A DNA stretch of 57,165 bases, counting the filler, from Jimgerdemannia flammicorona (taxonomy: Eukaryota), in NCBI GenBank assembly GCA_003990765.1. It is 2 parts of 2 records of this genome, joined end to end, with 100 filler letters (N's around TTAATTAATTAA, not from the genome) between each part and the next. Parts side by side here need not be neighbours in the genome. Positions count along the whole stretch, not along the records: positions 1 to 28,542 come from RBNJ01000554.1; 1 more part is not named here. One strand, 5' to 3'. The notes beneath the pieces were generated by a model that saw only the letters and a program-made list of their open reading frames with translations, ran no database searches and was not told the origin of the DNA. Each line of letters opens with the position of its first letter. The stretch's first letter is position 1. This document shows, one piece after another, positions 3,165 to 49,777 of the stretch. Both the position numbers and the translations under genes were made by a program.

Positions 3165-4678
3165 TGTAACAGTGACCCTAGAATTATGACAACAGTACAA
3201 GAGATATTCTTTTCTTACAAGCCACCAGATCAGAGCACAAGTAGATCATACAGTATATGAGATGAGCAATGATGACCAACTATGAGTTATTGTGACCACA
3301 GTATGGGTATCTTGAGGAATATAAAAGAAGGATTAAGGAACTACAGTAGCAGTAACCAATAAGACCCACCAATCTCAAAATAGCTCAAAGACTTACCACA
3401 AATAAAATGCCTGCTGCTCACCAAACCTCAAGGTCAAGAAATCACCAAGGTACCTCAGTTGAAGAAAGGATGTTCCAAGACATCAGAAGAGCCATGAGGA
3501 TCTACTCAAGAAAGACTCCTAGTATCAACCTGGGTACTAGTGACCCTTGTCATTATATCCTCTACTGTCATGAAATGGAAACAAGGATCACTATTGCTAC
3601 CAAATACCTCCAAATGTGGCAGGAGTATGAAATAGGAAATCTCCTCTACTGGGAGTTCCCATAGGCCAGCTCTCAAGAGTTACAAGATGTCACTCCCATA
3701 GATATATATGAAGTAAAGATAGCTAAGAAGATCCATCAGATCTTCAGGCATGCACCATGGTCAATCCCCAACTTGGAGTATATTAGAGTCTCAGATTTCA
3801 GAGACCTGTCATCCTGCTATATCAATGTACTAGAAACCAGGGTGGCTACAGAAGCCCAGTCCACTATTATCCTCAATAGTGATGAAGTAGAAGACTTCGG
3901 GCATCCCATCCTCCAGGACAACCCAGACCAATTCCTGCAAGGATTGATCTTAGTATTTCAAGGTCCAAGCATCCAGATTAGACCTCTCCAAGACCCTACA
4001 TTTGTCCCCTATTTTGTAGAAGAGAACCTCATAGACTGGAGAGCCCCAGACCTTCTTCTCACTACTACTAAATATGATGACATCATTGGCGATGATGTCA
4101 TCCTGTGTAATATTGAAGTATGTGAAATGTGCAATGATGATGAATTTGCAATCTCATCTCCTTCAGTGATGATGAGGATGAAGCCCCTATCATCTTGAAC
4201 ATTCTGCTCTAAAGTTCTTTAGTTATACTGAGTTATACCAGTACTGGCATTCTGATATAATACTGAGTTATGCCAGTACTAGTATTCTGATATAATACAG
4301 AATTATTCCAGCACCATTTTTCTGTACCACTATCAGTACCAACCCTGGAACTTAGCAGTTTTTCCTGTCCTGGCATATCATTTTAGTTATTGGAATTTAT
4401 ATTTAGCTTTATATCTTAGCAATCATTGAATTATATTTTGTATAAATACTCCTCTTATTTCCTTTAAAATAAAGTCAGTTCCAGTTCACTTATACACAAT
4501 CTCTTGCAAGCAATCTAAGAGATAACAAGATAGTTTAAAAATAAGAAGTTTGAGAACTATAAGACCTTAGGAAGACACTCCAATAAGAACTTGCTTATAA
4601 CAAACTTAAGTTAGTCTAAGAGATATACCTTGAAGAGAATCTGGCATATTTGAAGAACTCAGCAACTACTACTTGACA
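3165..4678 (+). repeat. 5' LTR of element 2
   Basis: Direct repeat of 10372-11086/17613-18422. TG...CA ends, TATA tataaata at 4441, aataaa near 4468, ~35-bp tandem repeats at 4222-4310. Confidence 0.93.
3407..4212 (+). pseudogene. LTR-encoded ORF of unknown function (family 2), ~268 codons
   Basis: ORFs 3407..3664 and 3773..4198 are in one frame separated by a TAG. Other copies (17613-17952, 41929-42156) give the C-terminus EDEAPxxLNILL*, implying a small frameshift near 4150. Confidence 0.75.
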
Positions 4679-4700
4679 ACTTGGTACTCATTGGCTGGTA
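4679..4700 (+). promoter_or_regulatory. Putative primer binding site
   Basis: act-TGGtactcattggctgg immediately after the LTR terminal CA. The cognate tRNA was not identified. Confidence 0.5.
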
Positions 4701-4734: not shown

Positions 4735-5974
4735 ATGAACAACTCCCACAACAACTACTCTGACTACAAGTGTCACCCCTGCAAGAATTCAAGACAAGAT
4801 GGAAATACATCTCTCTACATTTTATAGATATACTACTGAAGAGTCAATTCTGACCTTCATTGAAGACTTAGAACAATTCGCTGCTATACAAGCCCTTGGT
4901 GTGGATGTACAATTGGCCCTTCTACCAGTCAGCCTCAGAGGATCTGCCAGAGATAAGTTCAATGCAGCTACTATTGCTGATAATGGTGCAGCCAAACTTA
5001 CCAACATGAAGGCCTTCCTCAGAACAACATACTATATTGAAGAGATCAAGCAAGCTCTCAAGGATCAACTCAACACTATCTGCAAGAGACTCAGTGAAGA
5101 TCCCAACTTATTCTATACCTGAATCTGCCACCAGATTGTCTTGGCTGGCTATGATGATGCCCTCAAGGAACAAATAGCAAATTCAACCTTCCTCAAAGGA
5201 GTTCACCCTGAAATTGCCCTAACAATCCAGTCTACCCCAGCTGCACTGACCCTTGATCAGAAAGTGGTCTTTGTACAGAGATATTGGACTGCCAGACACC
5301 CTGCCAAACACTCAATGGAGAAAATAACTAGTATCAAGATAGAGCCATCAAAGCCAACTAGTATCATACCTGCTATAGTAATAAACAAACAACCAACCCC
5401 ACTTATCTCCAAGGCAGCCAAAGCTGACTCAGTGGAGGAACTTGCCAAGCAGTTTGCCAAGATAACAGTATACCTTAGTGATGTTGTTAGAGAAGTCCAA
5501 AGTGCCAACAGGAGACCAGTGCAGAGATTTGCAGCTACTACAGAAGAATGCAATATCACATGCTTCAGATGTGGAGAAGAAGGCCACTATACAAAGAATT
5601 GCATGACCAAAACAAGATGCAAAACCCAACCAAGCAATGCTAGCAGAATCAGAGAACAAACTAATGCAGTAGTCATCGAGGAGATTGGTGATACTGATGA
5701 TGAAGAATACTATGAAAAGCTTGAATTCTACCCTGCTACTGAAGGTACTAGAACCTGGTCCAAGCCCTATAACAAGAAGAGCAACAGCAAGCCAGTTGGA
5801 AGACCAAAGAAGACCCCAGCTATTACTATTCAAAGCAAGACTCAACTCAAGGAGATTGATCAAGACATGGAGTTAGATGGAGCTGTCTGCCAAATCATTG
5901 AAGGTACTACTCCAGTCTCAGGAGAAAGTGAAAGCAAGAAGAAACAGAAGCTGTGCAAGACCAAGATCCACTAG
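4735..5974 (+). pseudogene. gag: gag (capsid plus CCHC zinc knuckle), disrupted
   Basis: ORFs 4799..5122 and 5141..5974. Knuckle CFRCGEEGHYTKNC. Confidence 0.85.
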
Positions 5975-6169
5975 TATGATATCTACAAGGACCTCAGTCA
6001 ATGCTACTTTTGGACAGCTAGCCAAAGTCCCTGCCTTCAGACAGCAGCTGAGAGTAGGACTTGTAACTACTGCCAAGAATCAAGAGTACAAGATTGTAGA
6101 AGCTCACAATGTATAGGAAGAATCTGAAAACTCAGGTGAAGAATCCAAAGAACAGCACAAGACATCAGC

Positions 6170-8818
6170 CTATATCTCATATCAGATCAAAGACTATATC
6201 TTTGATACCATTATTGATACCAGTGCTGGAGGATGCCTCATAAGCAAGAAGACAATTGACCATCTAGGCTAGGACATTGAAGAGTTCACCAAGATGGTCT
6301 ATATTACAGCAGATGGTATACGAGCTACCCTCCTTGGCAAAATCTGAGAAGTCTCCATTAAGATAGGAGGAGCTACCATCTCAGTAGATGTGATTGTTAT
6401 AAGTACCACCAACTATGACATTCTCATTGGCAACCAATGGCTTCATAAGGTCAAGGCCATCATTGACCTCAATGCCCAGAAGATGCAGATCAACTATAGA
6501 GGAAGAAAGGTATGAGTCTCTATCAATGTCCACAAAGGAGTCCTACCAGACATAGAGGAAGGAGATGAAGAGAACACAGAGGTCTTCATGCACTCAGTGA
6601 ACAAGAACAAGAACAAGAACAAGACACCTAAGCTCACAGATGAGCAGTGGTACAACAAGATCATCAATAGCTATGCCTCTCAAGGAAGATGCCCCCATGG
6701 TACTAGGATGTACTGCTCTGAACACCTGAATGACTGCTGGTCCTATATCAGTGAAGTCAGGAAAATCCGCCAACAGAAACATGAGCAAGAAGCCACCAAA
6801 GTAAAACGGAAAGCCAAAGATTATGACCAGCCCCCAGAGCTTCAAGCTGACAGTAATGATGAGGAGGAACAAGAACCAGATATCACCCTTAAGGTCAAGA
6901 AGTTCTACCCTAAAGCCAAGATCCCAGAATATAAGACTGAAGGAGCCATAGAAATAGATCTTGCCAGCATTGAAGATGCTACTCTGAAACCACAGACCAC
7001 TATCCTACTTAGCACTGGAATTGGAGTCAATCTGCCAGAGAACCATGCCAGAATTATCAAGACCAGGAGCAGTCTGGCCAAAAGTGAAATCTCAGTTGAA
7101 GGAGGAGTAATTGACCCTGATTATACTGGTAAGATCTTCCTTATAGTCAGAAATCACAACCCTACCACCCCATTCAAAGTCAAGAAGTATGACAGGATTG
7201 GCCAGATGCTGATCCATAAAATCAAGAAACCCAAGATTGCTGAAGCCATTGAACTCATCAAGACTAAGAGAGGAGAACAAGGCTTTGAATCTACTAGAAG
7301 AGGAGCCTATGTCACCACCAAGATCACTAAACTTGAGCATAAGAAAAATAAGGATCAGAATAAGCACACATATACTATTGGAGAAAACTTTCCCCTAAAA
7401 GAACAACTTCTCAAGATCCTGCACCAGAATGAAGGAGTACTTGCTACAGACTTCTGGGATATCTATAATCAAGAACCCAAGTACTATTACAAAGTTGACA
7501 CTGGTGATACCAAGCCCATCTACCAGAAAGCCAGACCCATACCACCTGCCAACAGAGAATGGCTGTGAGCAGAACTCAAGGAATTGGAAGAAGCCAGAAT
7601 CATCAAGCAAGCTATCAGTCCCTGGGCTTCACCCATTGTCCTTGCCCCAAAGAAAGGAAGCAAACCTGGAGAGTTTGCACCAAGATACTGCATTGACTAC
7701 AGGAAGCTCAATGCCATCACCAAGAAGGATAAGCAGCCCTTGCCAAATATTCAAGAAATCCTTACCACTCTTGGAAGTGAAGCCAAATACTATACCACCT
7801 TGAATCTGTTCTCAGGCTTCCATCAGATTAGTCTCACTCAAGATACCAGTGAGAAATCAGCCTTCATCACACCTAATGCCACCTATATCTATCTGTAAAT
7901 ACCATTTGGAATGTGCAATGCCCCAGCAAGTTTCCAGCAAATGATGAACAGAGTCTTCAGCAATGAGATTGGAAAATGGCTCTTCATCTATATTGATAAT
8001 GTGATCATCTTCAGTAACACTACACAGGAACATATCAATCACATACAGCTAGCCCTCAAGAAGCTCAAGGATCATGGCCTCTACATCAAGCCTAAGAAAT
8101 ACAAGTTTGCAGCCCAGGAATTTGCCTACCTAGGACACCTCATCAACCAGACCAGAATCCACACAGACTCCATAAAGATTGAGGCTGTTGCAGCCTACCT
8201 GAGACCCAGAACAACCATAGAAGTCCATGCCTTCCTTGGACTGGCCAGCTACTATAGAATATTTATCAAAGGATACTCTAACATTACAGTACATATCTAC
8301 GAGCTACTGAAGAAGGAAACCAAATTTGAATAGACCAAGGAATGCCAAGAAACCTTCAATGAACTCAAGACCAGGTTGATCCAAGCACTATCCTCAGAAG
8401 ACCAGATTGGAACCTAGAATTCATCCTGCAGACAGATGTGGGTACTATAGGACTTGGAGCAGTCCTAGCTCAGAAGAAAGATGAACATGAATATGTCATA
8501 TCCTATGCAAGCCAAGGTACCTATGGAGCAGAACAGAACTACAAGCCATGCAAGCTCGAATGCTTAGCAGTAGTTTGGGCAGTAGACAAGTTCCACTACT
8601 ACTTAGCTGGGAAACACTTCACCATTCAAACAGACTATTCCGCTCTTGCCTGGCTATTCCACACTCTGAACCCCAAAGGAATATATGCCAAATAGATCTA
8701 CAGGCTGCAAGAGAATGACTGTACTATCAAGCACCACTCAGGAAGAACCAACACCAATGCTGATATACTCTTAAGGACACTCCGAAACACTCTCATCAAA
8801 ATTACTCAACATGAATAA
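6170..8818 (+). pseudogene. pol: pol: aspartic protease, dUTPase, reverse transcriptase, RNase H (stops and frameshifts)
   Basis: PR IIDTSAG (~6210). RT SPWASPIVL, CIDYRKLN, PFGMCNAPASFQ, YIDN (decayed YxDD). RH GLGAVLAQ, KLECLAVVWAV, TDYSAL. Confidence 0.92.
6880..7305 (+). pseudogene. dut: dUTPase domain between protease and RT
   Basis: In ORF 6588..7568: EIDL, TRSSLA, GGVIDPDYTGKI, DRIGQML, RGEQGFEST, matching trimeric dUTPase motifs 1-5. Confidence 0.9.
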
Positions 8819-10058
8819 GGAGTTATACTATGGATTGATCAGCTACCTTGAGCAGCAGAAGATGCTCAACCACCTTGAACCCTGGACAATCACCATCATC
8901 AACTGAACTTGGAAACAGTTTGAACTAGACAACACTACACTCAGAAAAGGAGGAAAGCTAGTAGTACCCAAATACAAGAAGTATCAAGTAATGAAGGAAG
9001 TATATGAGCAAGGATATCTAGGAAGAACAAACACATATGACAAGGCAAGAAGAACCATGTGGTGGCCCAAGATAGAAGAAGACCTGTACCAATTTATCAA
9101 AGGGTGTGACAAGTGCCAAAAACAGAAACAAGATCAGCAAGACCAGGCACCCAAGTCATCAAGAATTGAGCCTATCCCCTTCCACTACATCACAATAGAT
9201 ATAATTGGGCTACTACCAGTAATTCTATCATAAAATAACTATATTATAGTTATTATAAACCTCTTTACCAAATGGATAGAAGCAGGAGCAATACAAGAAG
9301 CCAATGCCCTCTCTATAGCTGACTTTCTGTACTGAGAAATTATCTGCTGCTACAAGACACTGAAGAAAATCACAACAGACCATAGCACAGAATTTGTTAA
9401 TGGATTCCATGATATAATGTATCAGAAATACAAGATCCAGTATATCAAGACCACTGCATATCACTCTCAAGGAAATGGACAGACAGAGAGAACCAATAAG
9501 ACCCTCAAGAACATCCTGGTAAAGATCTCAGAGATATATGAGAAATGAGATAACTATCTTCCAACTGCTCTCTCTGTCCTATGAGATATATGGTCACAGA
9601 GCACATACTTTACCCCAAGAGAACTGCTCTTTGGAGAAGAAGATTCTGATGTAACCTCAGTCACAAGTCTAGACCTAACTTGGAGATAGGTTGATGCAGA
9701 AATCCAAAGACTACACCAAATCAGAATGAAGGCTGAAGATTACATCATCAAGTCACAAGCACTGACAAGAAAGAATGCAGAAAAGAATCACAAGACTCTA
9801 GAATCCATCCAAATTGAAGAAAAGGTCCTACTGTATTGAAATATGGTAGAAGCCTCATGGTCATGAAAACTGAAGCCCAAATGAGAAAGACCCTTCTACA
9901 TGCAAGATATCAAGAGAACTACCTTCTGGCTTAGAAAAATCTCAGAGACCATACTGCCTACTACAGTACATAGAAACAGACTCAAGAAGTACCATGAACC
10001 TATAAAAGAGAAGCAAAATATAATGACCACCCATGAGGTTCTAGTCTGCAAATTGTAA
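8811..10058 (+). pseudogene. Integrase, as a separate ORF starting MNKELYYGL
   Basis: ATG 8811 is in frame with ORF 8991..9233 (WWPKIEED, CDKCQ, IDIIG). Later motifs: ITTDHSTEF, TAYHSQGNGQTER, decayed GPY/F motif, VHRNRLKKY. Confidence 0.85.
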
Positions 10059-10371
10059 CAGCATGTCCTGTGACCAGCAGGCTATCTGTCTGGACCAATC
10101 TCTAAGGGATATAGCACTAGCAACTACTCATCCATGAGACTTTCAAAACCAGAGGAGTTTGAACTGTCAACTGATTGGTCAAGATCAGAATCAAGCCCTT
10201 ACTCTATATGAAGGGAGCAACCCTTTACCATTACACCAAAATACAAAGAGAAGACACCAGTCCATAAATACCACTTTTCGACCCCTTGTTAGAGGTTATG
10301 GGATCAGCAAATTTTTCAAGACTGGACTAATAAATAAGGATGCTTGAGAAGATCCTTATTCAGGAGGAAAA

Positions 10372-11086
10372 TATAACAGTGACCCCAGAATGATGACATC
10401 AGTACAAGAGACAGCCTTTCCTTACAAGCCACCAGATCAGAGCACAAGCAGATCATACAGTATATGAGATGAGCAATGATGACCAACTATGACTCATTGT
10501 GACCACAGTATGGGTATCTTGAGGAATATAAAAGAAGGATCAAGGAACTGTAGTAGCAGTAACCAATAAGACCCACCAATTCCAAAATAGCTCAAAGACT
10601 TACCACAAACAAAATGTCTGCTACTTGCCAAACCTCAAGGTCAAGGAACTACCAAGACACCTCAGTTGAAGAAAGGATGTTCCAAGACATCAAAAGAGCC
10701 ATGAGGACCCGCTCAAGAAGGACTCCTAGTATCAACCTGGGTACTGATGACCCTTATCATTATATCCTCTACTACTATGAAATGGAAACAAGGAGCACCA
10801 TTGCTATCAAATGCCTCCAAATATAGCAGAAGTATGAAATAGGAAACCTTCTCTGCTGGGAGTTCCCACAGGCCAGCCCTCAAGAGTTACAAGATGTCAC
10901 TCCCATGGATATATATGAAGTAAGGATAGCTAAAAAGATCCATCAGATCTTCAGACATGTACCATAGTTGATCCCCAACTTGGAGTATATTAGAATCTCA
11001 GATTTTAGAGACCTGTCATTCCACTGTATCAATGTACTAGAAACCAGAGTGACTACAGAAGCCCAGTCCACTATCACTCTCAATAG
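10372..11086 (+). repeat. 3' LTR of element 2, left part
   Basis: Matches 3165-3879. Interrupted by the hAT insertion. Confidence 0.93.
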
Positions 11087-11189
11087 TAGTGCTCTGAATG
11101 AGTCAATTCAAATCAAATCTGGATTTGATTTGTCACATGATGGTTTGATCCGAATCTCAAATCTGAAGCCATCCGAATCAACTTGGATT

Positions 11190-11440
11190 AATCCAAATCA
11201 CCCCATCCAAATCACCCCATCCAAATCACTCATCCGAACCACTCCAATCTGAATCACTCAATCCGAATCACTCAATCTGAATTACTCAATCTGAATTACT
11301 CAATCTCAATCACTCAATCCGAATCACTCAATCTGAATCCTCCAATTCAAATCCTCCAATTCAAATTCTCCAATTCAAATCCTTCAATCTGAATTCTCAT
11401 CCAAATTCTTCAACCGAATCCTCCAATCCAAATCCTCCAC
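11190..11440 (+). repeat. hAT subterminal array of ~15-bp units (aatccgaatcactc-like)
   Basis: Visible tandem aatc(c/t)gaat(c/t)actc units. Related gatc/aatc motifs occur at the right end (17480-17600). Confidence 0.85.
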
Positions 11441-11539
11441 ATAACTCATATGCCAGATGCATCCACAATACAATATACACACACCCATACATAATACACA
11501 CACACACATATACATGTACATGCAAACATACAAACACAT

Positions 11540-14140
11540 ATGTTGACAGATCAGTCTTCAACAGTTCACAGTACTGATGATGCTTTAAGTCAAACATCCC
11601 TGATAGTTCCATACCTTCCATGCAATCCTTGCTCTGAAATCTGGCAACATTGTGCTAAAATAAGAGATGATGTTGTTTGTAATTATTACAGGTAAAAAAT
11701 TAAGATGTACCTATTGACACTTTTTGTTTGTTTTGACACACACATGATATTGTTTCATCCACCCCCATGAACTGCACCAGCTAGAAGTTCAAAATGCTTG
11801 GGGGTATGACTTTGAACATAAATTGACACATAAAAGACAAGTACTCTGACAAAATCAAAAAGAACACAGAGATAAATAAAATCGACATCCAAGCTGTGGT
11901 GGGTACATTTATCCGATTGCCCAATCATTTCTGTACCAACAACACTGTTTAATCAAAAATATTTAGTCATACTCTTTGGCAGAATTTTGAAATCAGCTCA
12001 TTTGCTAGATTGTATGCACAAACCAGCCATTCACAACCATCGAGAGTGATCAATTGCATAGCATCTTTGGCCTCCTCAAGCATGATTTATATTTGCCAAG
12101 TGCTGATACTATTTGCAAAGATGTCCTGGAGGCCTATAGGAAGGAGCATGACAATCTCTGCCAGACACTTCAGGTAAAATAAGGGCAGCACTGTGACCTT
12201 TGCAAGCTGAATTATATAAAAGAGCTCACCAATTTAACCTCACATTCAATAAGCAGAATTCAGCAGGCAAAATTTCGTTTATGATCAACACATGGATATC
12301 CCCTAGTGCAATTTTGTTTCTGGGCATTACCAGTCATTAGATTGACCTCGATTGGCAGCTTAAATCTCTCACCCTTGACTTCATCAAACTTGCTGGCCCT
12401 CATTCTGGAGACAACATCGTAGATGTTTTTATTAGTTGTATCTGGGAGCTTGGGATCACCACTAAGGTAAAAAAGGGGGGCTTGCTATCAGGTCAGTATT
12501 TTGAGTGAGGTCCTAAACCAAACCAGATTTTATTGGTTATTTATTTTTGCATAAATTCGCTGACTGAATATTTCAAGTACAGATTTTGGCTATTATGATG
12601 GATAATGCCACAAATAACTCAACATTTTTCAAAGTTTTAGTGGCCAGCCTCAAACAGAAAAATGTGGCCTTTAGTGCAGAAAGCTACCATGTGCAATGCC
12701 AGGCCCACGTACTGAACCTCACTGTTCAGGACTATCTTATACACATAGATAAAACATCCAAGAGAGGAGGGGTCCTGAGTATAATTTCCAAGCTGTGCAA
12801 TCTGGTTGTATTGGTCTGATCATCCCCACAATGATGAGACAAATTCACTGCATAGTATAGAGCAATCAGTTTAGCCTTGAAAGAGCTTATATTGGACATC
12901 TGTATATATTGGAACTTAACATTTACAATGATCCAGCATGTGCTGGAGTTTGCTGTAGTATGTGTTCTTTTTTTCTTCGGTTGGCTGAAGCAACTTGTTT
13001 TGGATAATTGAAGATTTATTAAAAAAAAAAAAAAAAAAAAAAAAGCCAATAGATTCAACAGTAGCTGTCAATAAGGAAATACGGGCTGAGGCTATAGGTG
13101 AAAGTGAGTGAGACATACTTAGGAATGTTGTCAGAGTTTTGGAAGTAAGTGGTGATTGCTCTGGCTCTACACTCATTTTGTCAGCCTCCACACTTGTTTT
13201 GTCTGTCTCTGCACAATGCAACACCTCACCACATATAACTACCAGTGTTTTGATGATTGTATGAAGGATATAGTCAAACAACAACCCCGACAATAAGCTT
13301 GGCAATACCAGTATACAACCTTCTGATTGACCAGCTAGAGGATAAGCTTGAGGACAGGCTAGAGGGTTGCAGTGATTTATGGTTGAGCCCGGATCAGAGA
13401 GATGCCATAGAGGTTGCTCTTAGCAAGCTCAGAAAGTACTACTCCCAAACAGATACTGCCATATACTCAATCAGTACAGGTATGTCGATGTCAGTGTATA
13501 GCCATTGTCCCTTCCAAAACAGAGAAACCCCCATAAAAACTCACTCTCTCCTCTCCTTCGAACAGTGCTGGACCCATGCTTAAAGCTACAATACTATAAA
13601 GATCAGGACTGAGAGCAGCACTTCATTGAGAGAACCAAGCAGGCCATAATCAAAGTGTACTGGAAAAATGACATGCTGCTGCAAGGTTCCAGCCAAAGTC
13701 CAGATGAATATGCTGAGAGATCCCTCCTGTCCTACATTTACTTCAGCAGAAAGAGGAAGAGGGAGTCATCAGTCGAAGTGCTGCTGTCAATAGACAAACT
13801 TACCATTTACCTTACCAGTGACCACATGATCTTGCTGGAGGGTGCAGAGGTGCTCAACTGGTAGAAGGTGGGTTGTCAGGTGGGCATTGGGCCAATTTAA
13901 CCCACCAATCTAACTACTGCTCTATCCACTGCTCTACCCACTGGGACATGCAGCTGTGTCAAATGGACTTCCCCAGCCTGTGTGGTATGGCTCAGGACTA
14001 CCTGGTGATTTCTGCCTCTAGCGCTCCTATCGAGCAGATGTTCTTAGGTGGGGTGGACCTCATTACTCCAAAGAGGTGTGTGCTGAATACTGAGACAATC
14101 CGGGCACATATATCTGAAGTCTTGGTGGGACTCAGGCTGC
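11540..14140 (+). pseudogene. hAT transposase, multi-intron, decayed
   Basis: BED-like SEIWQH..VVCNY, FLGITSH, MDNATNN, HVQCQAHVLNL (CxxH), YWNLTF (RWNST-like), dimerization domain FPSLCGMAQDYLVISASSAPIEQMF. GT-AG introns at about 12174-12256, 12467-12582, 13480-13565 and 13868-13953. Confidence 0.9.
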
Positions 14141-14261
14141 TAAAATTTGGCAGGTCCTGGGGGTTTGTGGATAAGTTGGTTGACCTTGTGGATTATTTAA
14201 TACCTTTCAAAAATAATAAAAAGGTAAAAACCCTGAGGACTCGGCCTGGAGTTTACAGTCT

Positions 14262-14915
14262 AAGTGGGCAGCAGTTGGCAGGGTTGGCAGCAGCGGCAGA
14301 GGGAGCGTGCAATATTTGTGGCCCTCTACCAGTAGCAAGGGGCAGCCCCAAGCTGTCAGTGCCCAGGTCGGTGGGTGGGTCAGCAGAGGGAGCATGCAAA
14401 ATTTGCAGCCCTCTGCTAGCAGCAAGGGGCAGCCCCAAGCTACAAGTGTCCTGGTCAGAGAGGTTGGCAGAGGGAGCATGCAAAACTTATGGTCCTCTAC
14501 CAGCAGTGAGGGACAGCCCCAAGCTGTCAGCACCCAGATCAGTGGGTGGGATTGGTGGGCATGGGGTTGGTAGAGGGAGTATGCAAAATTTGCAGCCCTC
14601 TGCCAGTAGTAAGGGGCAGCTCCAAGCCGCAAGTGTCTGGGACAGGTGGGGCAGGTGGAGGGAGCATGTAAAATTTGCAGCTCTCTGCCAGCAGCAAGGG
14701 GTAGCCCCAAGCTGTCAGCACCCAGGTCAGTGAGTGGGGTTGGTTGGCAGGGTTGGTGGGCACAGGGTCAGCAAGGGAGCATGCAAAATTTGCAGCCCTC
14801 TGCTGGCAGCAAGGGGCAGCCCCAAGCTGCAAGTGTCTGGGATGGGTGGGGCAGGTGGAGGGAGTACACAAAATTTGCAGCCCTCCACCAGTGGCATAGG
14901 GGCAGCCCAAGCCAC
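14262..14915. repeat. GC-rich minisatellite inside the hAT
   Basis: About 7 units with core gagggagcatgcaaaatttgcagccctctgccagcagcaaggggcagccccaagctg and two alternating tail types. Confidence 0.9.
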
Positions 14916-15177
14916 CAAGGAGTCCGGGGCAGAGGGTGCTTCTGGCAGTCAGAGGGTGCTTCTGGTGGTCGGAGGGTGCTTCTGGCAGTTGGAGGGCATT
15001 TTTGGCAGTTGAAGTCCATCACAGATTTGGGCCCCATCACCAGTTTGGGTCCCATGGGCACCCTGGCCCTGTGCCACAGCACTGCACCGGTAGCACTGCA
15101 GAGCAGAGCCAAGGGGCTGGTAGGGCCCTGCATAACGGCTAAGCTAGTACTACAGATGAGGTAACCCCCAACATAAG

Positions 15178-15268
15178 ACTGCCTAACCTGCACAAAATGA
15201 CTGCCTAACCCTCATGAAAGACTGCCTATCTCTCACAAAAGATTGCCTAACCCTTACAAAAACTGCTC
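15178..15268. repeat. 4-5 tandem ~21-bp units actgcctaaccctcacaaaag
   Basis: Seen directly, at the 3' end of the minus-strand passenger gene. Confidence 0.8.
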
Positions 15269-17150
15269 CAACCACTAGTCCTAGGCCTTGATGAGCCTAT
15301 CATCTGTTGTGAGTGTGATGACTGTTGTGTCTGAGCTCTCCTTGAAGGTGACAGTACCATAGTGGTCATGTGGTTGGAAGAGGATGGCCATGTTGGCCGC
15401 AAACAGGACCCTGAAACCATAGGTGAGGTCATACCAGACTCTGCTGCTATCCTCTCAGGTTGGGCCCTTCCTTTCCAGGATGTAAAATATTACCAGGGTG
15501 ATATTGTTGTCTGTATATGTAGGCAGAGAAAGGTTGTGCCCGACATATCCTGATGTGATGCAAGCATACAGTTTGGTGAACCCTTGGCACAGGACCTCAT
15601 ACTACTAGGCTGTGCTGGTGGATGCCTGCTCTTGGTCCAGCGCTGGGAGCCCTGGCTTGGAAACCTGCCAAAACGGATGACAACCAGTCAGTCCTTTTTG
15701 CGTGCAGGGGGGCAGAAACCCCCCAGGCCACAGAAACCCCCTGGGCTGCAGAAACCCCCTGGGCTACAGCACCCCCAAAAAAGCAGAGCTCCTCACCTCA
15801 TACAGTATACTAAATTATACCAAGAATGTATGTACAGCCATACTGAGATCACCACTAAGCTGGCCTACTGCATACTCTACCAATCTGCTCAAAGAACCCC
15901 CAGATCATAGCCACCATCACCACACAGGTCATGTCATGCTTGTGCGCAGTTTGCTCTTTGACAGTATTTCTAAAGTTCTAGTAGGGGTATAGAATCTTGT
16001 ATATCCCTGGATTTGTATCCAAAAGAGTATGTCGGTGAAGAGTGTGATTTATCTGGGAAGGAGTAAAAAAAAAGGGAGACAAGTGTGGGGGATTTGAGAA
16101 CTCCAGAACCCACCCTTTGCCAGTGTTGCAGTATATCCAATTCCTGTCCAAACTCCCCCTCCTTGCTTTTTTCACCCCCTCTTTCCTACAACTCAGTATT
16201 TGATGCAATCCTTGCAAATCTCATTGATGTGGTGGTGAAGCTCATCACCATAGAGGTTCCTTACCACCATCACAACCACCTCTCTACATTTGTTAATAAA
16301 GATATGGTTCTTTTTGTCATTGGTTACTCCTACTGGCCAATGGACCTCTTGGTTAAGAACAATTGGCTCTGATTTGAATGTAGACCCCCAAGCCTTGATG
16401 ATGATACTGGTACTACTCATGCTGAACATCTTGCCCTCAAATTTCTCTATTTGATTAGATACTAGACATGGTTGAACTCAGGTAACTTTGAACTCTTCTT
16501 TCCAATGGAACTGAGCTCTGATCTGAGGGACCGAGATAAGTGTGTAGACAGGTTGCATGCAGATGGGTTGCATATGGATGGGTTGTGTGCAGGCGAGTTG
16601 TATGTGGGTTGGTTGCATGTAGGTGTGGGTGTTTTTTAGGGGAAGACCATGTAAAAAATAAAATTAAATAAAACATAGAGATGGGTATTTCAGAAAAAGA
16701 GTATGAGTGAGTGAGTGAGTGAGTGAGCTACATGCTGACAAGTTGCATGCTGATAAGTTGCACAAGTTGCACAAGATTGCTCATGAAGGCTTGCTTCTGT
16801 TCCTTTTGAGACCTCTACCACACGATACATTGACTTAACAGCTCAGCCACCAAAGGCATGCTCTGCAATGTCCTCCAACCTTTCTTCATCTTGACCAGAT
16901 GTTGTGAATAAAGTCAGCAGATCTCACCATAGAGCTGTGGACCCTAAGAAGAGAACAAGGTGAATTGGGTTGTGCTGGGGGAATTTAAACAAGTAAAAAG
17001 TAGTGGCAGAAAAGAGCAACCTACATTTACTACTGGCTGCTCCAAAAAGGCTGCCATGTATAGCTGTGAGGTCTGTGAATTCTGAGGTCTGAAGGGCTGC
17101 CGTAAGTTGTTGCTGGAATTCACCCTCATTTCTGCCATCATCATTGCATT
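15254..17150 (-). pseudogene. Multi-exon passenger gene, probable 2OG-Fe(II) dioxygenase (TET/JBP-like)
   Basis: Last exon 15664-15254 reads ...LPT[Y<H]TDNNITLVIFY...WYDLTYGFRVLFAANMAILFQPHDH[Y<H]GT. Upstream exons give VVMVVRNLYGDEL and TYSFGYK. Motif recognition by eye only. Confidence 0.5.
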
Positions 17151-17612
17151 GCCATCACCACTACCATCACCCCTTTGGCTCTTGATGAGCAGCTTATGTG
17201 CTACCCATATGAGAAAAAATCTAACATTGTCAGCAGAGAGTGTATTTCCACCTTGAATACTCCTTCTTTTGATGATTATTGCAGGGTGAAAAATGAGTTG
17301 ACTGGACCAACATATGAATTAAGGACTGCTGTTTTGTTTCCTCATGATGTGGTAGGAAAGAACAAAGAAAAATAACAAAGAAAAGAGAGAGAACAAAGGA
17401 AAGAGTGATGTCACCAAAGTGTGGTAGGAAAAAAAAAACAAGAATGAAATGAACAAAAGAAAGAGTGATGTCACTAAAGATTTCAATCCGGATGGATCAA
17501 TCTGGATCAATTTGGATCAGATCACGAGACCAATCCAAGTTGATTCGAATCCATTATATGATGAACCTGAATCAAATCTCATCCAGATCAACTCCATTCG
17601 TTCAGAGTACTA

Positions 17613-18422
17613 CTCAATAGTGATGAAGTAGAAGATTTCTGGCATCCCATCCTCCAGGACAACCTAGACCAATTCCTGCAAGGATTGATCTCAGTATTCC
17701 AAGGCCCAAGCATCTAGGTTAGACCTTCCCAAGACCCCACATTTCTCCTATTTTGTGGAAGAGAACCTCATAGACTAGAGAGCCCTAGACCTCTTTTCTG
17801 CTGCTGCTGAATGTGATGATATCATTGGTGATGATGTCATCTCATGTGACATTGAAGTATGTGAAATGTGCAATGATAATGAATTCACAGATCTCATCTC
17901 CTTCAGTGACAATGAGGATGAAGCCCCTATGGTCTTGAACATTCTGCTCTAAAGTTCTTTGGTTACACTGAGTTATGCCAGCATCAGCATTCTGATATAA
18001 TACTGAGTTATGTATACCAGTACTGGTATTCTGATATAATACTGAATTATTCTAGCACCATTTTCCTGTACCACCATTAGTGCTGACCCTGGAACTTAGT
18101 AGTTTTTCCTGTCCTGGCATTTCATTTTAGTTATTGGAATTTATATTTAGCTTTATATCTTAGCAACCATTGAATTATATTTTATATAAATACTCCTCTT
18201 ATTTCCTTTTAAATAAAGTCAGTTTCAGTTTACTTACACACAATCTCTTGCAAGCAATCTAAGAGATAACAAGACAGTTTAAAGATAAGAAGTTTGAGGA
18301 CTATAAGATCTTAGGAAGGCACTCTAATAAGAACTTACTTATAACAAACTTGAGTTAGTCTAAGAGATACACCTTGAGGAGAATCTGATATATTTGAAGA
18401 ACTCAGCAACCACTACATGATA
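17613..18422 (+). repeat. 3' LTR of element 2, right part
   Basis: Matches 3872-4678. Ends tgata (decayed TGACA), followed by atat. Confidence 0.93.
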
Positions 18423-21400
18423 ATATATATTTCTCAATAAGATTACTATTGATAATATTATCTCTAATAAAGTAGTCATCTAGAAAGAGTGGTTCTTAGA
18501 TTATATCTCTTGATTTATTTATATAGTAGTATGTTAGAATGAAGTAATCATCTTATAGGATGGTATTATCTATCTCATATACTGAATATAGTATTAGTGA
18601 GTAGAGAAGAGATATGTTATCTTCACTTTCTCAGATTTGCTATCAGTGTATCTTTAGTAGATTATAGTACTACAAATTATAAGATTATAGTAAACTAGAG
18701 ATTATTCTTTATATTGCTCATACTCAGAAGATAGAGTTATTAGTTCAATCTCAAGAGTTATTTAGTGATATAGCTTATATTCTCTTGTCTCTTCATTATA
18801 GTTGAAGTAGTTAGATATAAATATAGATTGATACTTATACTAGTAGTTATTATTCTAATAGGTCTTATAGATAGTTATAAACTATTATAAGTCTATTGAT
18901 TAAGTTAATAGAGTGATCAGAGTTGGCAGAGATTCTTGGCTAGAGGATTTCTTAGTGTTAGAGATATTGTTGTCTTCTATTTTATCATCATCAAACTATA
19001 TTATATTATAGATGTTCTTTATAGTATATAGTTGTTATTTAGTTTGTGATAATTCTCTATTTTGATATATTGTATACTAGGTACATATATCTTTAATCTT
19101 AATTGGTAAGAGTTTGTTTTTATGAGTCTTATATGTATTTTGTAACTTTGAGTTAACTTAGCTTTATGATCTTATATGTGATTTCTGGATTTATTCTGAG
19201 AATGATATATAATTTCAGTAGTTTAGAGATTGTATACTTATAACTCTCTTTTTTTGTTTTGTTTTTGATATCTTTGTTAAGTTCTTCTAACTTAATCTAG
19301 TATTATTATATTATTTAGATAGTCAAAAGACCTTTTTTTCAGAAAGTAGTATACTTATAGTATAGTTGCCTAACATATTAAATTCATATATTAAAGAGTT
19401 ATATATTCAATACTATATACCAGAAGTAATTATGATGTCATTCACTACTGGAGAATTTCCTCTAAGGAATCTGTTTAAATGTTTATACCTCACTTTCCAC
19501 CAGTGATATAGAGAGAATAGACTGACTTTCAGTTATGCTTTTTTTATTTTTATTTTTATTTTTTTTTTTAGAAAACTAGTATTCTTCTATCTTAATTTTG
19601 CTAAGAGTGTAGCAGAGTTTTTAATTTATTTGTAATAATTATAAGAGTGCTTAATAGTATTTAGGAGGAGTAATATATATAATATAGCAATGGTTAATAT
19701 AGGAGTACTTTAACTAGTTTTTCAAAGAATTATATTCTTGAACTAAGTTAGTAGTATTCTAGAGATTTGTTCTGAATTTCTATATAGCATTATGGATTGA
19801 TAACCTTTCTATTTGATAAGGTATTCTGGATAATTCTTGTAGCTATATTTGTTGAGAATTTGTTCAACTTTGTATTTATTATAATCATTATATAATAATG
19901 ACAGATGCTGGTGGTTTTATAGTCTAATTTGGAAATCATTCATTGTTATTTTCATTATATTACTTAAAATATTAAATATTGAAGACTGGGTGAATTTTGA
20001 TAGTATCTAATAGAGCTAGTTTATAGAATATTAGAGAAATCTGTATAATAACTTCAAATAGTCTGATGAACTTACTGTTTAATATTATAAAAGATCTGTA
20101 CTTGAGGTTATCAACTCAGTATCCTTAGATATCTAGTAGAACTTTTTTACTGACATTAAAAGATTCTTCTTGGTAGTACTAGTTAATATACTGAGATTGT
20201 TGGTTTTGGGCTTGAGATAGATTCTCAATTGTAATTTGGCTCAAGTTGTATATCAGAGTAGAAATTCTTCAATAGCTTCAATAATAGAGATTTTATTTAT
20301 AGTTCTGATAAGAGTCAGATAGGTGTTTAGATTTTGTCCTATATTAGTAAAGAATAAGATTATTCTAAGTGAAGCTTGTTTGCTATTATTATAGATAAAC
20401 TCAACTGCAGTAAGGTATTCATACTAATTATCTTATTTATATAAAATATAGTTTCTTAGTATCTAGGGTTCAGTTTATTCTTTCAGTTTGGCTATCAGTT
20501 TTAAGATAAAAGACTATAGAGGTACTAGTTTCATTCTAAGTTATGAGTGTAGAGCTTTTCAAAAATAACTAGTGAATTTTTGATCTTGTTCACTAATAAT
20601 TATCTTAGAAAGACTATAATAATAGAAGATGTTATTAAGTAGAAGAGTGGTAATTTCAGATACTATTGCAGTTATAGTAGTAAGTATGAAGTAGGCTTAT
20701 TTGCTAAGATAATCTATGAAGAAAATAATAGCATCCTTTCTGTTCTTGATTTAGGATAGTTATATAATGAAGTCTAGAGAAATTTTTTTTCAATTAGTAG
20801 ATAGTACTGAAATAGAATAGTAGTCTAGGTTATGTAAGATTGAGGACTTATTGCATTAGTAGATATTATAACAAAGTGTCCTTCATGTGAAATGTATATG
20901 AGATGTATTATGCTTAATTGAGTGTGCTGATATAAGCTGAGTCGATGGGTTTGGTGAATATGGAAGTATGTACTTCCCAGGCCTACTATTCATATAAAGC
21001 GAAGAGGCTGCACATTTATTGTTCCTTCTCCAAAAGAGAAGGGCAGGATGGATTGCATAAACTAATTGCAGGAACTAATTAAGTATACAGGTGTAGTCTA
21101 TATGCTTGATTGTTAAGATGTGATACATACTCAGTCACTTAGAGAGATATTACATATAATGCATACTGAAACATTGCTAAGCTATTTGCCACTGACATCT
21201 TGCCAGGGAACTGAGACTAGGCTAACATTGTATAAGAAACTGCACAATGGGAACTGAGACTGAGCTAAGATTGCATAAGAAATGGTGTGGCAGGAAACTG
21301 ACACTAAGCTAAGATTGTATGAAAGACCTAAAAGATTGCATGATAGTGGTTTTTCTATGGCTTTGGCCACTTTGCCGAAGTTTGAGCTATGTTCATAACT

Positions 21401-23203
21401 CTAAGAAGTGATATAGGTTTTCAACTAGTTTGCCATATAGAGTCAATAGAAGTTTTGAGAGATAACTTTATAATATTTATTAAATCCTAAATGTCTAGCT
21501 GTTGGAGCATTATAATATTTAAACAGAATAGTTCTTTGAAGATCATAATTGTTAGAGATATACAATCTGTCCTTATAATAGATAGTTTTATTCTTTAATT
21601 AGTATTGATGATACTGAGAATATTTACTGATATCCTAATTACTCAGGATTTTCTGAAGTGCTTGAGCTTCTTTATTATCAGTATATACTGTAATAATTTG
21701 TTCTATAATGGAATTGATAACTAAGGTGAGAGTTTATATAACTTCTTTAATTGATGATCTAGAGATAGTATCAGTAATACTATTTTTTTTACCATAATAG
21801 TATTGGATTTTATAGTTGAAATTGGTGAGAACTTTCATCTATCTAGCTTACTTTCAGGAAAGAGTAGTCTGGGTCTTGATATTGATCAATTTTTTATAGT
21901 CTATTAATACAGTAAAGTATGCTTCTTTGAGATATATATAGATACTATTTAATCAGGGTGTCTACAATAGCTAGTATTTTTTTCTCATAGGTGGCATAAT
22001 TGATCTTGATACATATTATTAAACTTATAAGAGTAATAGGCCACAGAATATCTCTTATATAAATACTACTCTAAGAGCTAGGTCAGAGATATCAGCAGTA
22101 ACTTCATATAGCAGAGCAAGATTTTTAGCTTAAAGTACTGGAGTAGTTATCAGGATATCTTTTAAGACTTAAAAGGCTGTATTTTATTCCAGTCTCTATT
22201 TAATAAAGTTGTTAAAATCTTTTTCTTACTTTGTTATCAAGAGTTGTTCTTCTTTTTTACTATACTTAGTCAGTTAGGGGAAAATAGTAGCAATCTTAGC
22301 AAAGTTTACAGTAATAATTTGCTAATTCTAGGAATAACTGAAGGTCTTTAAGCTTCTTAGGTCGGGCCCATTTCTTGATTATAAAGATTTTGCTAGAATC
22401 TAATATAATTTTATTAAGAGAGGCAATATGTCTAAAGAATTAAATTTCCTTTAGAAGAAATTCACATTTACTAAGTTTTGCATAAAGTTGATTTTTCTAA
22501 AGCTTCAGGAGTACTAGTTCAAAATATTCAAGATATTCCTCTAGGGTTTTACTGAAGACTAGAATATTATCAATATAGATAATAATAAATTTATCTAGAT
22601 AAGAGTACAGGATAGTATTTATCAGAGTCTGGAAGGTTGTGAGAGTATTAGTTAAACTAAAGAGCATAACTAAGAACTCAAAATGTTTATAATAAGTTCT
22701 GAAGGCAGTTTTGTAGATATCTTCTTTCTTTATAGCAATTTGCCAATAATTATTTCATAGGTCAAAAGAGCTCATGAATTGTAGATTGATAAGTCTGTTA
22801 AAGATTTTATCAATTTGAGATAATGAACAATAGTTCTTGATAGTCTATTCATTGAGATCTTAATAATTAATATATATTTGAAGGTCTCTTCCTTTCTTGA
22901 TGATAAAGAGAACTAATACACTAAATAGTAATATACTAGATCTAATGAATTCTTATTCTAGGAGTTCATTTATCTCTTTCTTGAGTATGTTAATTTCTCT
23001 AGAAAATATATAGTAGATTGACTTGAAGGTTGGTTTGACACCTGATATGGTCTTGATTATATAGTCAACTACTCATTTAGATAGTAGCTCTTTGAGATAT
23101 TCTTGAAAATATATCTCAAAATTTTTAAAGTAGAGATCTTACATGACTATTAACTTTGGAAAAATCTTCTTTAAGATTCTCTAGTTCTCCTTTGAATAGA
23201 TAT
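18423..23203 (-). mobile_element. Heavily decayed Ty3/gypsy element 4 (RT-RH-IN remnants, PPT, proximal 3' LTR 18423-19242)
   Basis: Minus frames give DIYKTAFRT, YIDNILVFS (RT, ~22560-22720) and IISEQDQKF (IN, ~20580-20610). A purine tract at 19243-19260 abuts the LTR start, which is homologous to 2452. Confidence 0.75.
20867..21397. mobile_element. Probable solo LTR or small insertion within the integrase remnant
   Basis: Less decayed ~530-bp block with decayed TG..CA-like ends and three ggaactgagactaggctaa-like repeats. No clean TSD. Confidence 0.45.
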
Positions 23204-28642: not shown

Positions 28643-31600
28643 TTTTTTTATAGTCCCTTGGACTCCGTCTTTATTCCCAATCTATGAATAAGTATACAAA
28701 AACACCACCCTCTACCCTATCCCCATCGGGGGACCTCTCCCCACCTCTTCATGTGTAAAGACCACCCTCTCACCAACAACTCCAACCCTCCCACCACTCT
28801 GACCACAGATTTTTACCACCAAGCGGTGCCTCTGACCCCCCTGCAGCCCCCAACCAAGCCACCAGCCTGTCAAGGTATCCTCCATAAGGTACTGCCACTG
28901 TGATAACTGGCTCCCCAAGCTCTGTTGCCTCCCCTTCTTAAATACAAATAGCCAGTGACTGGCCAGCCCAACCCAAATAGCCAATGCCCAGTCTAGAGTA
29001 ATCTACTCCTCCCCTACCCCTCCTATCAATCAATCCCTCAGATCCTCCCACCTCCCCCATATATCATCACCCCTATGCCTTACCCCCAAGCAGTCCCCAA
29101 TGGCCCGCCAAAAGTCACCCAACACCTCACACTCCCCAAGCCAATGTTCTGGTGTCTGTACAAATCCCCCTTCCTGCCCTACATTATGGCACTTCTCACA
29201 GTCAAAGCAGCCCCCCACAACAAGGTGTCCTGAGCAGAAGTTAAGCATCACATTTCTCCTCAGTACATGCTACCAGACCACCCAGTACTTCAGTGGCATC
29301 CAATTTTTCACCATGGCACTCCAGGTCCAAACCCCCTGCCAGTCCCACTCCTCACCAATTCCAACTCCTTGCCAACCACTAGGCTACAGATCCTGGCCTG
29401 GTCCCCTTTGGCATTTGATTCCATCACCAATGTCGAACTCCAGTAAAGGCATGCCTCCCAGAAGAATGCTGTCCCATCTCCACATCACCAGGCCCCAAGC
29501 CCTCTCCCCCTTATCCCCTTGCCAGCGAATATCAATACAGTATACCCCCTCAGCTATCCCCCACCAGAAGCCTTTATATCGCAGTTGCTCAGTATTCTGA
29601 AGCCCAACTAATGAAAAAAGATCACCAGTCAAGCCTCTTGGTGATGTCCGCCTCTCCCATACCTTCTGCAGCAGAGGAACCCAGCCCCCTCCATGCAACT
29701 CCACTGCCCTCCTAAGCCACTATGCCCTCAAGCAGTGTAGTCTTTTGGGGAAGTCCACCAGCCCAAGACCACCTCTCACCCCCAGTAGGGACAGTGTCTC
29801 CCAACCAATCTGACTCTGTCTGCCAGCCCAAATCCATCCCTTGGCCACCTTCACCAATCGCTTCACCACCCAGGCTGGGAAGTCCAGATGATAAGCCAAA
29901 TACCACAGTTTCAGCAGCCAGTATACATTCAAAATCGAGATCCTTCCTGCCAGAGAGAAGTGTCTTCTCCCCCAACCCCACAGGTCCTCCTCCCAAATTC
30001 CAATCCTCTGCTCCCACCACAGCCTGGGCAGAACAGACCCATAGACTGACAAATATATGCCCAAGTACTGCACTACCTCTCTGGTGGGGAAAATTGTTCC
30101 AATAATCTCTCCGCCCACCAGTCCATTGCCTAGCACCATCGTTTTGCACTTGTGCCAATTCAGCTTCACCCCAGAGTTCTCCTCATACCACTCCACTGTC
30201 TTCTTGAGCTCCTCGACATCCACAGTTACTCCCAAACCAACCACCATGTCATCTGCAAAGACTCCAACTTTTCAGCCAATTCCATAGATAGAAAGCCCCA
30301 CAATCCTCCGCCAAATTCGGTCCATTAGAGGCTCCAAGGAAAGTGTATACAAAATGGGGGACAGTGGGTCCCCCTGGGGCACTCCCCTACCCAGAGGGAA
30401 TGCTACCCCTCTATGTCCATTACACACAAGCGCAGCCCTACTTATTTCCAGTAGGCTGACCATCACCACCTGAAATGGGACCGGAACCCCAATCCTATCC
30501 AACACTTTCGCCAGCCAGACTCACCACACTCAGTCATAAGCCTTCTCCTGGTCCAAGAAGACAAGATGCCCATCCAGTCCACAGGCTCGAGCACCCTCAA
30601 TAACTTCATATACCCAGGCCATGCTATCTCAAATAAGCTGACCCCCTATGAAGCCCCTCTGCTCAACACCCACAATTTGTTGGGCCACCTTCTGCAGCCT
30701 TGTGACCACCACCTTAGTCACCAACTTTCTGTCCATATCTAGCAACATTATCGGCCGCCAGTTCTTCCAATCCTCTCGCCTTCCCTTGTTCTTATAAAGT
30801 AGTATCACCAGTCCAAGATCCTGCTCCCCCACCCATCTCCCTGACTGCAATATAGAGTTACACAGTGCTGTCAACTCTCCCAATATGTCCAGGACTCCAA
30901 CCATTCGCTTCCAGAAGTCCAAGGGGAGGCCATCCTCCCCAGGTGCCATATCTGAGGCTGTCACGGCAAGAACCTGGTGGATCTCGTCCTCCTTTACAGG
31001 TATCACCAGGTCACCTAATCCCTTAGCTCGTGGAGGGTACCAATCTTCTAATGTTTGTTCAATGGCTGTAGCATCCACCCCACCCTCCTCCTCACTCCAC
31101 AATCCACTCCATCACACCTTCAGCATTCCAAGGATATCCTGTACACTATGCACTAGTCTACCATCTGAGTCAAGTACCCCTTCCCACTGCTGCTGTACCC
31201 TTCTTGCTCGAAGTGTCCTCGTAAGAAACTTGGAAGGCCTCTCCCCTTCCTCCAGCCCCTGCCAATGAAGCCATGCCACCAGGCCTTATACCCTTGACTC
31301 TTCCTCTTCCCACAGCACCTGTTGTAGTTCCCCAACCTCCATCTTTACTCTTGTTATTCTCCAATCCTCCTCTCCCTCCACTACTGTCAGACTCATCCAC
31401 TCCTCCAGAAGCCTAGCCAATCTAGTAGAAGCCCAATGTACTCTCTGCCTTCACTGCCTCTCAGCCACTCTGCCAGCCTTGCTCCAATACATCCTGACCA
31501 TCTCTTTTATTCTCTTCCACTGAACCCCAATTGTGGCCCCTTCCTGCCACCAATTCGCCACCTTCATCTAAATGTCATTTGCCCACTCCTCCCACTGGGA

Positions 31601-41327: not shown

Positions 41328-41433
41328 GTATCTATAAAATATAAGTTCATACTTATATTAAAGAGTTCATATATATCTATTATTAATAAAAAAAAAAAGG
41401 TTATATTTATAGCAAATATTTGAATTTATATAT

Positions 41434-49501: not shown

Positions 49502-49777
49502 TAGTACTCTCAAATAAATTAAATCAATTTGAATCAAATTGAATTAAGGGTTATTTAAATAAAATTGAATTGGGGATTTTTTAATTCAAATCAAGTTCAA
49601 ATTTAATTACCTTTAGCTTGTTAGATTCCTCTTATATAGAGGAATCTAATAAGCTAAAGATTATTAAATTTTGACATATTTTCATCAAGTTATTATATTT
49701 TAAAAAATGGAGTTTGAATTAAATCTCAAATTAAATTAGATCTTTGGTTTAATCAATTCAATTTATTGAGAGCACTA
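49502..49777. mobile_element. hAT-type MITE
   Basis: TIR tagtactctcaaataaatt / (rc) tagtgctctcaataaatt resembles the hAT ends. 8-bp TSD tctataac/cctataac. Confidence 0.85.

Follow-up and report, generated by a model that had tools for sequence, protein, structure and literature searches.

The stretch of DNA analysed here (hereafter the window) comprises 57,165 nucleotides of Jimgerdemannia flammicorona (GenBank assembly GCA_003990765.1), made of two parts joined by 100 filler letters, with positions 1 to 28,542 coming from RBNJ01000554.1. It contains a complete hAT DNA transposon of 6526 bp (11087..17612, plus strand), which carries a decayed hAT transposase gene on the plus strand and, convergent with it, a three-exon passenger gene on the minus strand (16429-15254). 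The original prediction, made from the sequence alone, had described the element as a hAT with a probable TET/JBP-like dioxygenase as passenger and had placed the latter convergent with the transposase; this arrangement is confirmed, and the passenger lies inside the element ends.

The element is bounded by 12-nt terminal inverted repeats (TIRs), TAGTGCTCTGAA on the left (11087..11098, plus strand) and its near-complement TAGTACTCTGAA on the right (17601..17612, minus strand), in which 11 of the 12 bases agree and the sole difference is a transition, the element ends being TAGTRCTCTGAA. They are flanked by an exact target-site duplication (TSD), CTCAATAG, at 11079..11086 and 17613..17620, whose 8 bases occur once at each of two empty sites. 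At the first, CTCAATAG is found once at 3872-3879, and in a blastn of the hAT flanks against the window the flanks are contiguous at the 3879/3880 junction, 10374-11086 matching 3167-3879 at 90.6% and 17621-18400 matching 3880-4656 at 89.8%. At the second, an older paralogue, the flanks abut at 42293/42292 with 72 and 66% identity, and CTCAATAG is present once near 42293. Since the flank matches abut, the insertion is placed exactly at 11087-17612 with an 8-bp duplication, the length of the TSD being fixed at 8 bp by the empty sites. Contigs of a soil metagenome also continue directly from 11086 into sequence resembling that after 17620. The inserted segment is a canonical hAT DNA transposon, preserved over its full length but dead in this copy, and its host sequence is the 3' long terminal repeat (LTR) of a gypsy retrotransposon.

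The transposase gene (11600..14150, plus strand), visible as a read-through translation, is spread over all three frames and interrupted by many stops. A match to the hAT C-terminal dimerisation domain (PF05699), just below threshold, was obtained at 13960..14112 on the plus strand with an expectation value (E) of 4e-4, its 20.6 bits being short of the 21.4 cut-off, and again as a weak match (E 9e-4) in the read-through translation. The motifs DNATNN and CQAHVLNLTVQD (CQAHVLNL), both within 12568-12819, fit hAT transposase blocks. Subterminal 14-bp repeats resembling AATCCGAATCACTC occupy 11190..11437 (plus strand), and a GC-rich tandem-repeat spacer with periods of 87, 20, 18 and 21 (14294..15266) separates the two convergent genes.

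The passenger gene would code for a product of about 303 aa, as compared with 318 aa in L001, an intact relative from a metagenome described below. Exon 1 (16429-16114) begins with an ATG at 16429 that aligns with the start Met of L001, and it aligns with that relative from the Met to the donor site; it encodes the strand EVVVMVVRN, a Gly/Arg-rich motif and GYT. Intron 1 (gtgggt...tccag, 16113-16007) is defined by its splice sites and by the alignment with L001 exon 2, exon 2 (16006-15821) being comparable residue for residue with that of L001 from the tccag acceptor at 16007 (GIYKILYPY-stop-NFR versus GMHSCITPYRNFK). Intron 2 (gtataa...ggcag, 15820-15665) has its acceptor at the identical protein position in the window and in L001 (PGLPALD versus PTLPRLD), and exon 3 (15664-15254), with both metal-site motifs, ends at the natural stop TAA, 15256-15254. 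By tblastx, window 16282-16112 matches L001 exon 1 and window 15451-15335 matches L001 exon 3 (E 3e-7).

The last exon had originally been read in this same minus-strand frame, 15664-15254 (...LPTYTDNNITLVIFY...YGFRVLFAANMAILFQPHDHYGT...), and both frame and motifs stand, while five in-frame stops had gone unmentioned: the translation runs VSKPGLPALDQEQASTSTA, two stops, YEVLCQGF, and further on LPTYTDNNITLVIFYILERKGPT, a stop and EDSSRVWYDLTYGFRVLFAANMAILFQPHDHYGTVTF, down to LIKA, D and WLEQFL, each of these three followed by a stop. Of the two strands that had been assigned to upstream exons, VVMVVRNL is indeed part of exon 1 (tblastx E 3e-7), while YSFGYK is intronic (intron 1, 16113-16007) and its frame shows no homology. 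The extent up to 17150 is not retained, as coding begins at the ATG at 16429 and nothing in 16430-17150 was found to support further coding exons.

In this copy the passenger gene is dead, with eight premature stops, one frameshift and Tyr in place of both proposed iron-binding His. Exon 1 carries TGA at 16195 and 16174, exon 2 TAG at 15980, and exon 3 TAG at 15607 and 15604, TGA at 15457 and TAG at 15283 and 15277. Seven of the eight align with Trp, Gln or Arg in the relatives, and the one at 16174 with Lys in L001; the TGA at 15455-15457 reads TGG in metagenome contigs. The frameshift is a 1-nt insertion in a run of G near 15897, in exon 2: three metagenome contigs lack the extra G, and without it the exon 2 frame is open to the GTATAA donor. 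Every polarisable lesion in the gene is C>T or G>A.

A search with the exon-3 frame, its stops read as X, retrieved three matches among 1,835,955,588 representative proteins, namely P0001 (75% identity, E 2.5e-47), P0002 (45%, E 1.2e-19) and P0003 (31%, E 7.4e-6). With a profile search, four variants of the P0003 lineage (P0004-P0007) were recovered as well, for a total of seven metagenome proteins, all of them short open reading frames (ORFs) with no names and no Pfam domains. No longer relative of P0001 was present among 455 candidates, a near-length search gave P0001 alone, and none of the 23 matches from a pattern scan of genome contigs was a relative. On the scan of JGI metagenome contigs, two loci were identified, L001 (3666 bp) and L002 (2870 bp). 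In L001, three ORFs are joined by canonical introns (gtaagt...tatag and gtgaga...ccag) into a spliced sequence of 957 nt, coding for 318 aa with no internal stop.

L002 is a pseudogene copy of L001 altered by transitions (TGG>TAG, CGA>TGA), and in L002 an upstream segment of roughly 75 nt is duplicated (1-700 of the two loci). Similarly, several copies exist in the AT-rich lineage of P0003-P0007, compared with L001, and the replacements between them are of transition type (D>N, R>C/W/Q, G>S/R and C>Y). The gene is thus multi-copy in a second organism as well, and there also undergoes C>T decay. Further downstream in L001 (2320-2945, plus strand) there are two ORFs of 93 and 94 aa with no Pfam match.

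With eight premature stops and no Pfam match in this copy, the frames of the passenger could be taken for chance ORFs in repeat DNA, with no gene behind them. Against this stand homologues at E 2.5e-47 to 7e-6 and an intact three-exon relative of 318 aa with canonical GT-AG introns, a common intron position and about 30% protein identity to the window gene, and we find such an origin hardly conceivable. As judged from these comparisons, the passenger is a genuine, conserved gene.

The relatives also settle the nature of the two Tyr codons of exon 3, which are TAT at 15517-15515 and at 15361-15359 on the minus strand, as first reported. It had been proposed that each derives from a His codon, and that a consensus should restore His at both places. 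At the protein level this is what the relatives show: the first position is His in 9/9 of them (P0001-P0007, L001 and L002) and the distal one in all seven that cover it, P0005 ending before it and P0007 being out of frame. The acid of the HxD motif is Asp in six of the nine relatives and Asn in the other three (P0003, P0006 and P0007), which are decayed and show other transition-type changes too; the motif is HTD in P0001 and P0002 and HVD in L001, L002, P0004 and P0005. In L001 the triad is made of H228 and D230 (HxD 228-230) and H278, with a spacing of 50 residues. The HxD...H triad is therefore present in the relatives and absent in the window copy, which has Tyr at both His positions; on the alignments, both Tyr are ancestrally His and arose by CAT>TAT.

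These changes fit the mutational setting of the locus. The CpG observed/expected ratio is 0.15 for the element and equally for the window as a whole, and all four NCG contexts are depleted (0.06-0.25); in the element, TpG/CpA is 1.42, TpA/ApT 0.69 and (CpA+TpG)/(ApC+GpT) 1.61. Comparison of the window with the soil-metagenome copies gave 574 differences, of which 546 are transitions. Among the 40 of these 574 places with the best support, 31 show a T or an A in the window against C or G in all contigs, the TGA at 15455-15457 being one of them. From this composition, the decay is attributed to deamination of methylated CpG. Two other processes were considered: repeat-induced point mutation (RIP) of the Neurospora type was rejected on the TpA/ApT and (CpA+TpG)/(ApC+GpT) values of the element, and the TCG-specific hypermutation described for rusts (Kojima 2025, Biology 14:1741, PMC12730594, section 4.2) was not seen, all four NCG contexts being depleted.

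In one DNA run from soil, 2085 metagenome contigs, 80-99% alike, cover all 30 bins of the element, and their depth over the passenger exons is of the same order as over the transposase, a depth that cannot rank the parts. These short contigs suggest that the passenger is present in other hAT copies. Alternatively, the gene could belong to another mobile element, or be a host fragment, that landed inside this single copy: no second full-length copy with gene and transposase on one molecule was seen, the metagenome contigs are 150-220 nt long and none bridges the two genes, and L001 shows no transposase within its 3.7 kb. On the other hand, the gene has neither inverted repeats nor a duplication around it within the element, the contigs cover the two genes to a similar depth, and, on the corresponding side of its gene, L001 ends in AAATCAAATC-type repeats like those of the hAT subterminal region, which is suggestive only; the TIR pattern itself, with 5 matches at 3 mismatches in L001 versus 5.4 expected, is not above chance. 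Overall, such a nested insertion appears very unlikely to us.

As to the protein family, the ESM Atlas model of P0001, which corresponds to exon 3 only, reached a predicted local distance difference test (pLDDT) score of 0.69 and a predicted template-modelling (pTM) score of 0.59. In the feature comparison, two unnamed basidiomycete clusters rank first and second (0.95 and 0.93), the third is a basidiomycete cluster named 'Tet-like 2OG-Fe(II) oxygenase' (2OG, 2-oxoglutarate) with PF20515 in 72% of its members (0.91; 178 of 256 features shared), and a score of 0.88 was obtained for a phage cluster, 11% of whose members have Tet_JBP. Eight of the ten structural neighbours are 2OG-Fe(II), Tet_JBP-bearing or prolyl-hydroxylase clusters, with TM scores of 0.54-0.63, and the Atlas rates scores of this size as leads. 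Together with motifs resembling, by eye, those of the PE type of fungal transposon-borne TET/JBP proteins (PMC12730594), these neighbours partly support the reading of the passenger as a putative Tet-like 2OG-Fe(II) oxygenase and favour the original family assignment.

Prolyl 4-hydroxylase, HIF-proline dioxygenase and generic 2OG-FeII_Oxy_3/5 clusters are also among these structural neighbours, within the TM range of the Tet_JBP-bearing cluster. Combined with the missing Tet_JBP Pfam match, they would also agree with an oxygenase of the 2OG-Fe(II)/cupin type whose substrate is not a DNA base (for instance, one resembling prolyl hydroxylases or acting on small molecules), encoded by a host gene that the hAT captured and having no role in methylation. 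We consider this unlikely, if by no means far-fetched, as the best named feature neighbour is the 'Tet-like' PF20515 cluster, the by-eye likeness to the published PE motifs extends beyond the HxD...H core (N-terminal strand-helix, SAG, LPRLD and C-terminal RL), and the family was encountered solely as multiple copies altered by transitions, in the manner of a transposon gene.

A number of results weigh against the assignment to the Tet/JBP group. The hmmscan that had been proposed as a check matched no Pfam family at E<=10, Tet_JBP (PF12851) and 2OG-FeII_Oxy_6 (PF20515) included; the scans were made on single exons (window exon 3, an ORF with most of exon 1, P0001-P0003 and the three L001 exon ORFs) and left out the homologous exon-2 frame of the window. 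Profile searches of the PDB sequences retrieved no oxygenase, the rows obtained being weak and irrelevant (designed repeat proteins at E>=0.22 and TFIID/Brat/TERT at E>=0.099, with none in a third search). AlphaFold2 on exon 3, run with 4 and 9 sequences, returned an unusable fold (pLDDT 33.9 and 35.0), and because these predictions failed, the Atlas model is the sole source of the presumed double-stranded beta-helix. The Atlas search with L001 exon 1 was uninformative, with RNase III and DUF clusters as best neighbours (0.84). The likeness to the PE proteins in the published material was judged by eye on short motifs, unscored and with no tree, and HxE, the hallmark of that type in PMC12730594, is replaced by HxD (HTD, HVD) in the three lineages found here. 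According to section 4.2 of that paper, the transposon-borne TET/JBP enzymes themselves, PE type too, are without experimental validation. To these points are added the lack of a second full-length copy, given above, and the state of the co-substrate site.

In TET2, the distal His is followed at a distance of some 15 residues by the 2-oxoglutarate-binding Arg of an RxS motif, and at the aligned place this Arg is absent in our family. By eye, the position aligned with the Arg of PU 'SRLGLS' or of A. bisporus PE 'QRGLAF' is occupied by Thr, Thr or Gln, in agreement with the caveat already expressed in the original prediction, where the Arg was said not to be evident. A later Arg (DDRL/DERL, distal His+21) lines up by eye with the SSRL, PVRL, GGRL and NRL of PE proteins; it is conserved in only two of the three lineages, being shifted in that of L001 (LKRY). 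Pezizomycete PE proteins, as given in Table S1 of PMC12730594, are likewise without Arg at the first of these places. With such features, the family might represent a fourth, undescribed clade, PE-like with HxD, devoid of the usual Arg, near-absent from databases and carried by 8-bp hATs of soil fungi, which could use a co-substrate other than 2-oxoglutarate (like CMD1) or release a product other than 5-hydroxymethylcytosine, with the element marking its own DNA; we view this as speculative and quite unlikely.

Taken together, the locus is probably best described as a dead canonical 8-bp hAT with a convergent three-exon gene, the product of which would most likely be a Tet/JBP-like Fe(II)/2-oxoglutarate dioxygenase, nearest to the PE type but with HxD. 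We infer the fold and the Tet/JBP kinship of this product, and with them 5-methylcytosine (5mC) as its presumed substrate and a putative benefit to the transposon. In an intact element, the transposase would move the hAT, and the convergent gene would supply an Fe(II) oxygenase oxidising 5mC on the element or genome-wide; this oxidation may relieve silencing by CpG methylation and slow the C>T decay that ensues. In the copy described here, both genes have been destroyed by that same C>T-type decay, with His turned to Tyr and Trp, Gln and Arg codons turned to stops. Should the prediction be correct, the element belongs to the rare transposons that counter host epigenetic silencing directly, through a 5mC oxidase of their own, and is seen here in a copy inactivated by the CpG-type C>T decay that the enzyme is thought to prevent, with both iron-binding His lost. 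Such passengers are probably under-counted in fungal genomes, because the family has no Pfam match and only three lineages were found in 1.84 billion protein clusters.

Other features were observed elsewhere in the window; of the 123 ORFs of at least 90 aa in the whole window, 105 were scanned against Pfam, the other 18 (within 10968-17318) being sampled in a separate scan. The genes of the gypsy retrotransposon are found at about 5100-10000 on the plus strand (zinc knuckle, dUTPase, reverse transcriptase, RNase H and integrase), with the dUTPase domain located between gag/protease and reverse transcriptase (ORF 6516-7565, PF00692, E 5.7e-25); its LTRs, about 90% identical to each other, extend over about 3100-4700 and over 10300-11086 plus 17621-18400. 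Three features, the taxa of the Atlas neighbours, the short introns and this gypsy element with its dUTPase, a combination known from basidiomycetes, would by themselves suggest a fungal, probably basidiomycete, origin of the DNA. With <=1 mismatch allowed, the TIR pattern of the hAT has 5 matches in the window versus 1.06 expected, two of them being the hAT ends and two bracketing a relative of the same hAT family, non-autonomous and similar to a miniature inverted-repeat transposable element (276 bp, 49502..49777). The ends of this relative (TAGTACTCTCAA / TAGTGCTCTCAA) are the terminal 12-mers of the hAT with one mismatch each, and its flanks form an 8-bp duplication (TCTATAAC / CCTATAAC) differing by one transition; it sits in a 28% GC stretch without any CpG.

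Extreme G/C strand asymmetry, with no tandem repeats, was noted at 29000-41000 and 43000-47000 (GC skew -0.35 to -0.57) and at 53000-56000 (+0.48 to +0.54); these tracts overlap long ORFs with no Pfam match as well as ORFs resembling long interspersed nuclear elements (minus-strand endonuclease/reverse transcriptase remnants, 29700-32200). AT-rich blocks at 17613-23000, 41000-43000 and 47000-53000 (GC 0.23-0.34, CpG observed/expected 0.00-0.04, TpA/ApT >1) look more decayed than the adjoining blocks of 42-57% GC.

Among known systems, TET/JBP genes have been described by Kojima (2025; PMC12730594) in complete elements of 11 fungal DNA-transposon lineages, and the hypothesis of demethylation and escape from silencing is put forward there for all TET+ transposons. 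These lineages include 20 TET+ hAT7 families in six Puccinia species, characterised by 7-bp duplications and PU-type genes, and hAT-borne Tet genes appear there, in 2025, for the first time; the statement in the original prediction that no association with hAT was known is thus outdated. Like hAT7, the present element is a hAT with a transposase and a putative TET/JBP-type gene, and its fungal host likewise has repeats hypermutated by C>T changes. It differs in its 8-bp instead of 7-bp TSD and in its ends, which start with TAGTGCTCTGAA whereas the hAT7 consensus ends start with CAACGGTGGGCC or CAGCGATGGGC; the PU-type genes of hAT7 (motifs WGGKMWGIGWRK, PHKDHND and RLGLS) bear no close likeness to ours.

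With the TET/JBP genes associated with KDZ (Kyakuja/Dileera/Zisupton) and Plavaka transposons of Basidiomycota, among which CcTET oxidises 5mC (PMC12730594), the proposed logic is the same, i.e., a DNA transposon with a 5mC oxidase. The transposase superfamily and the enzyme type (AG) are different, with no sequence-level match to ours. According to the same source, the solved structures nearest to PE and PU proteins are those of CMD1 (Chlamydomonas), NgTET and human TET2, with which the family described here would have in common the HxD...H triad on a presumed double-stranded beta-helix; it has no PDB profile match to them and none of their Cys-rich or DNA-binding extensions.

The likeness is closest with the PE type, found in Pezizomycetes and Agaricales and itself very diverged (HHpred E 1.4 to CMD1; PMC12730594). 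As far as the PE sequences given in that paper are concerned, both groups are on fungal DNA transposons, both measure about 270-320 aa, and both are too diverged for ordinary sequence searches, ours being without Pfam match. By eye, they follow a common order of motifs, E[LV]V..V.RN, SAG, LPR[ML]D, the metal motif, GG..[FY]...YG[IF]R[VI]..A.N......P.D.HGT and RL. Indeed, EVVVMVVRN in our family compares with ELVLVVIRN in PE, VSAGY with YSAGS or LSAGS, LPRLD or LPALD with LPRMD, and DDRLIKA with SSRLPRA, while around the distal His 14 of 23 residues are identical between YGFRVPFAANTAVLFQPHDLHGT and the PE sequence YGIRVRAAANTLIAWQPKDWHGT, in a by-eye, unscored alignment.

TET/JBP genes on transposons, a hAT carrier included, are therefore already in print (PMC12730594). 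As predicted from sequence, the novelty of this locus is that a PE-like HxD gene, of a family missed by annotation pipelines and with a predicted function, is combined with a canonical 8-bp hAT. To the published list it would add a hAT lineage of the canonical type, with its 8-bp duplication, and a PE-like predicted enzyme with HxD, not HxE.

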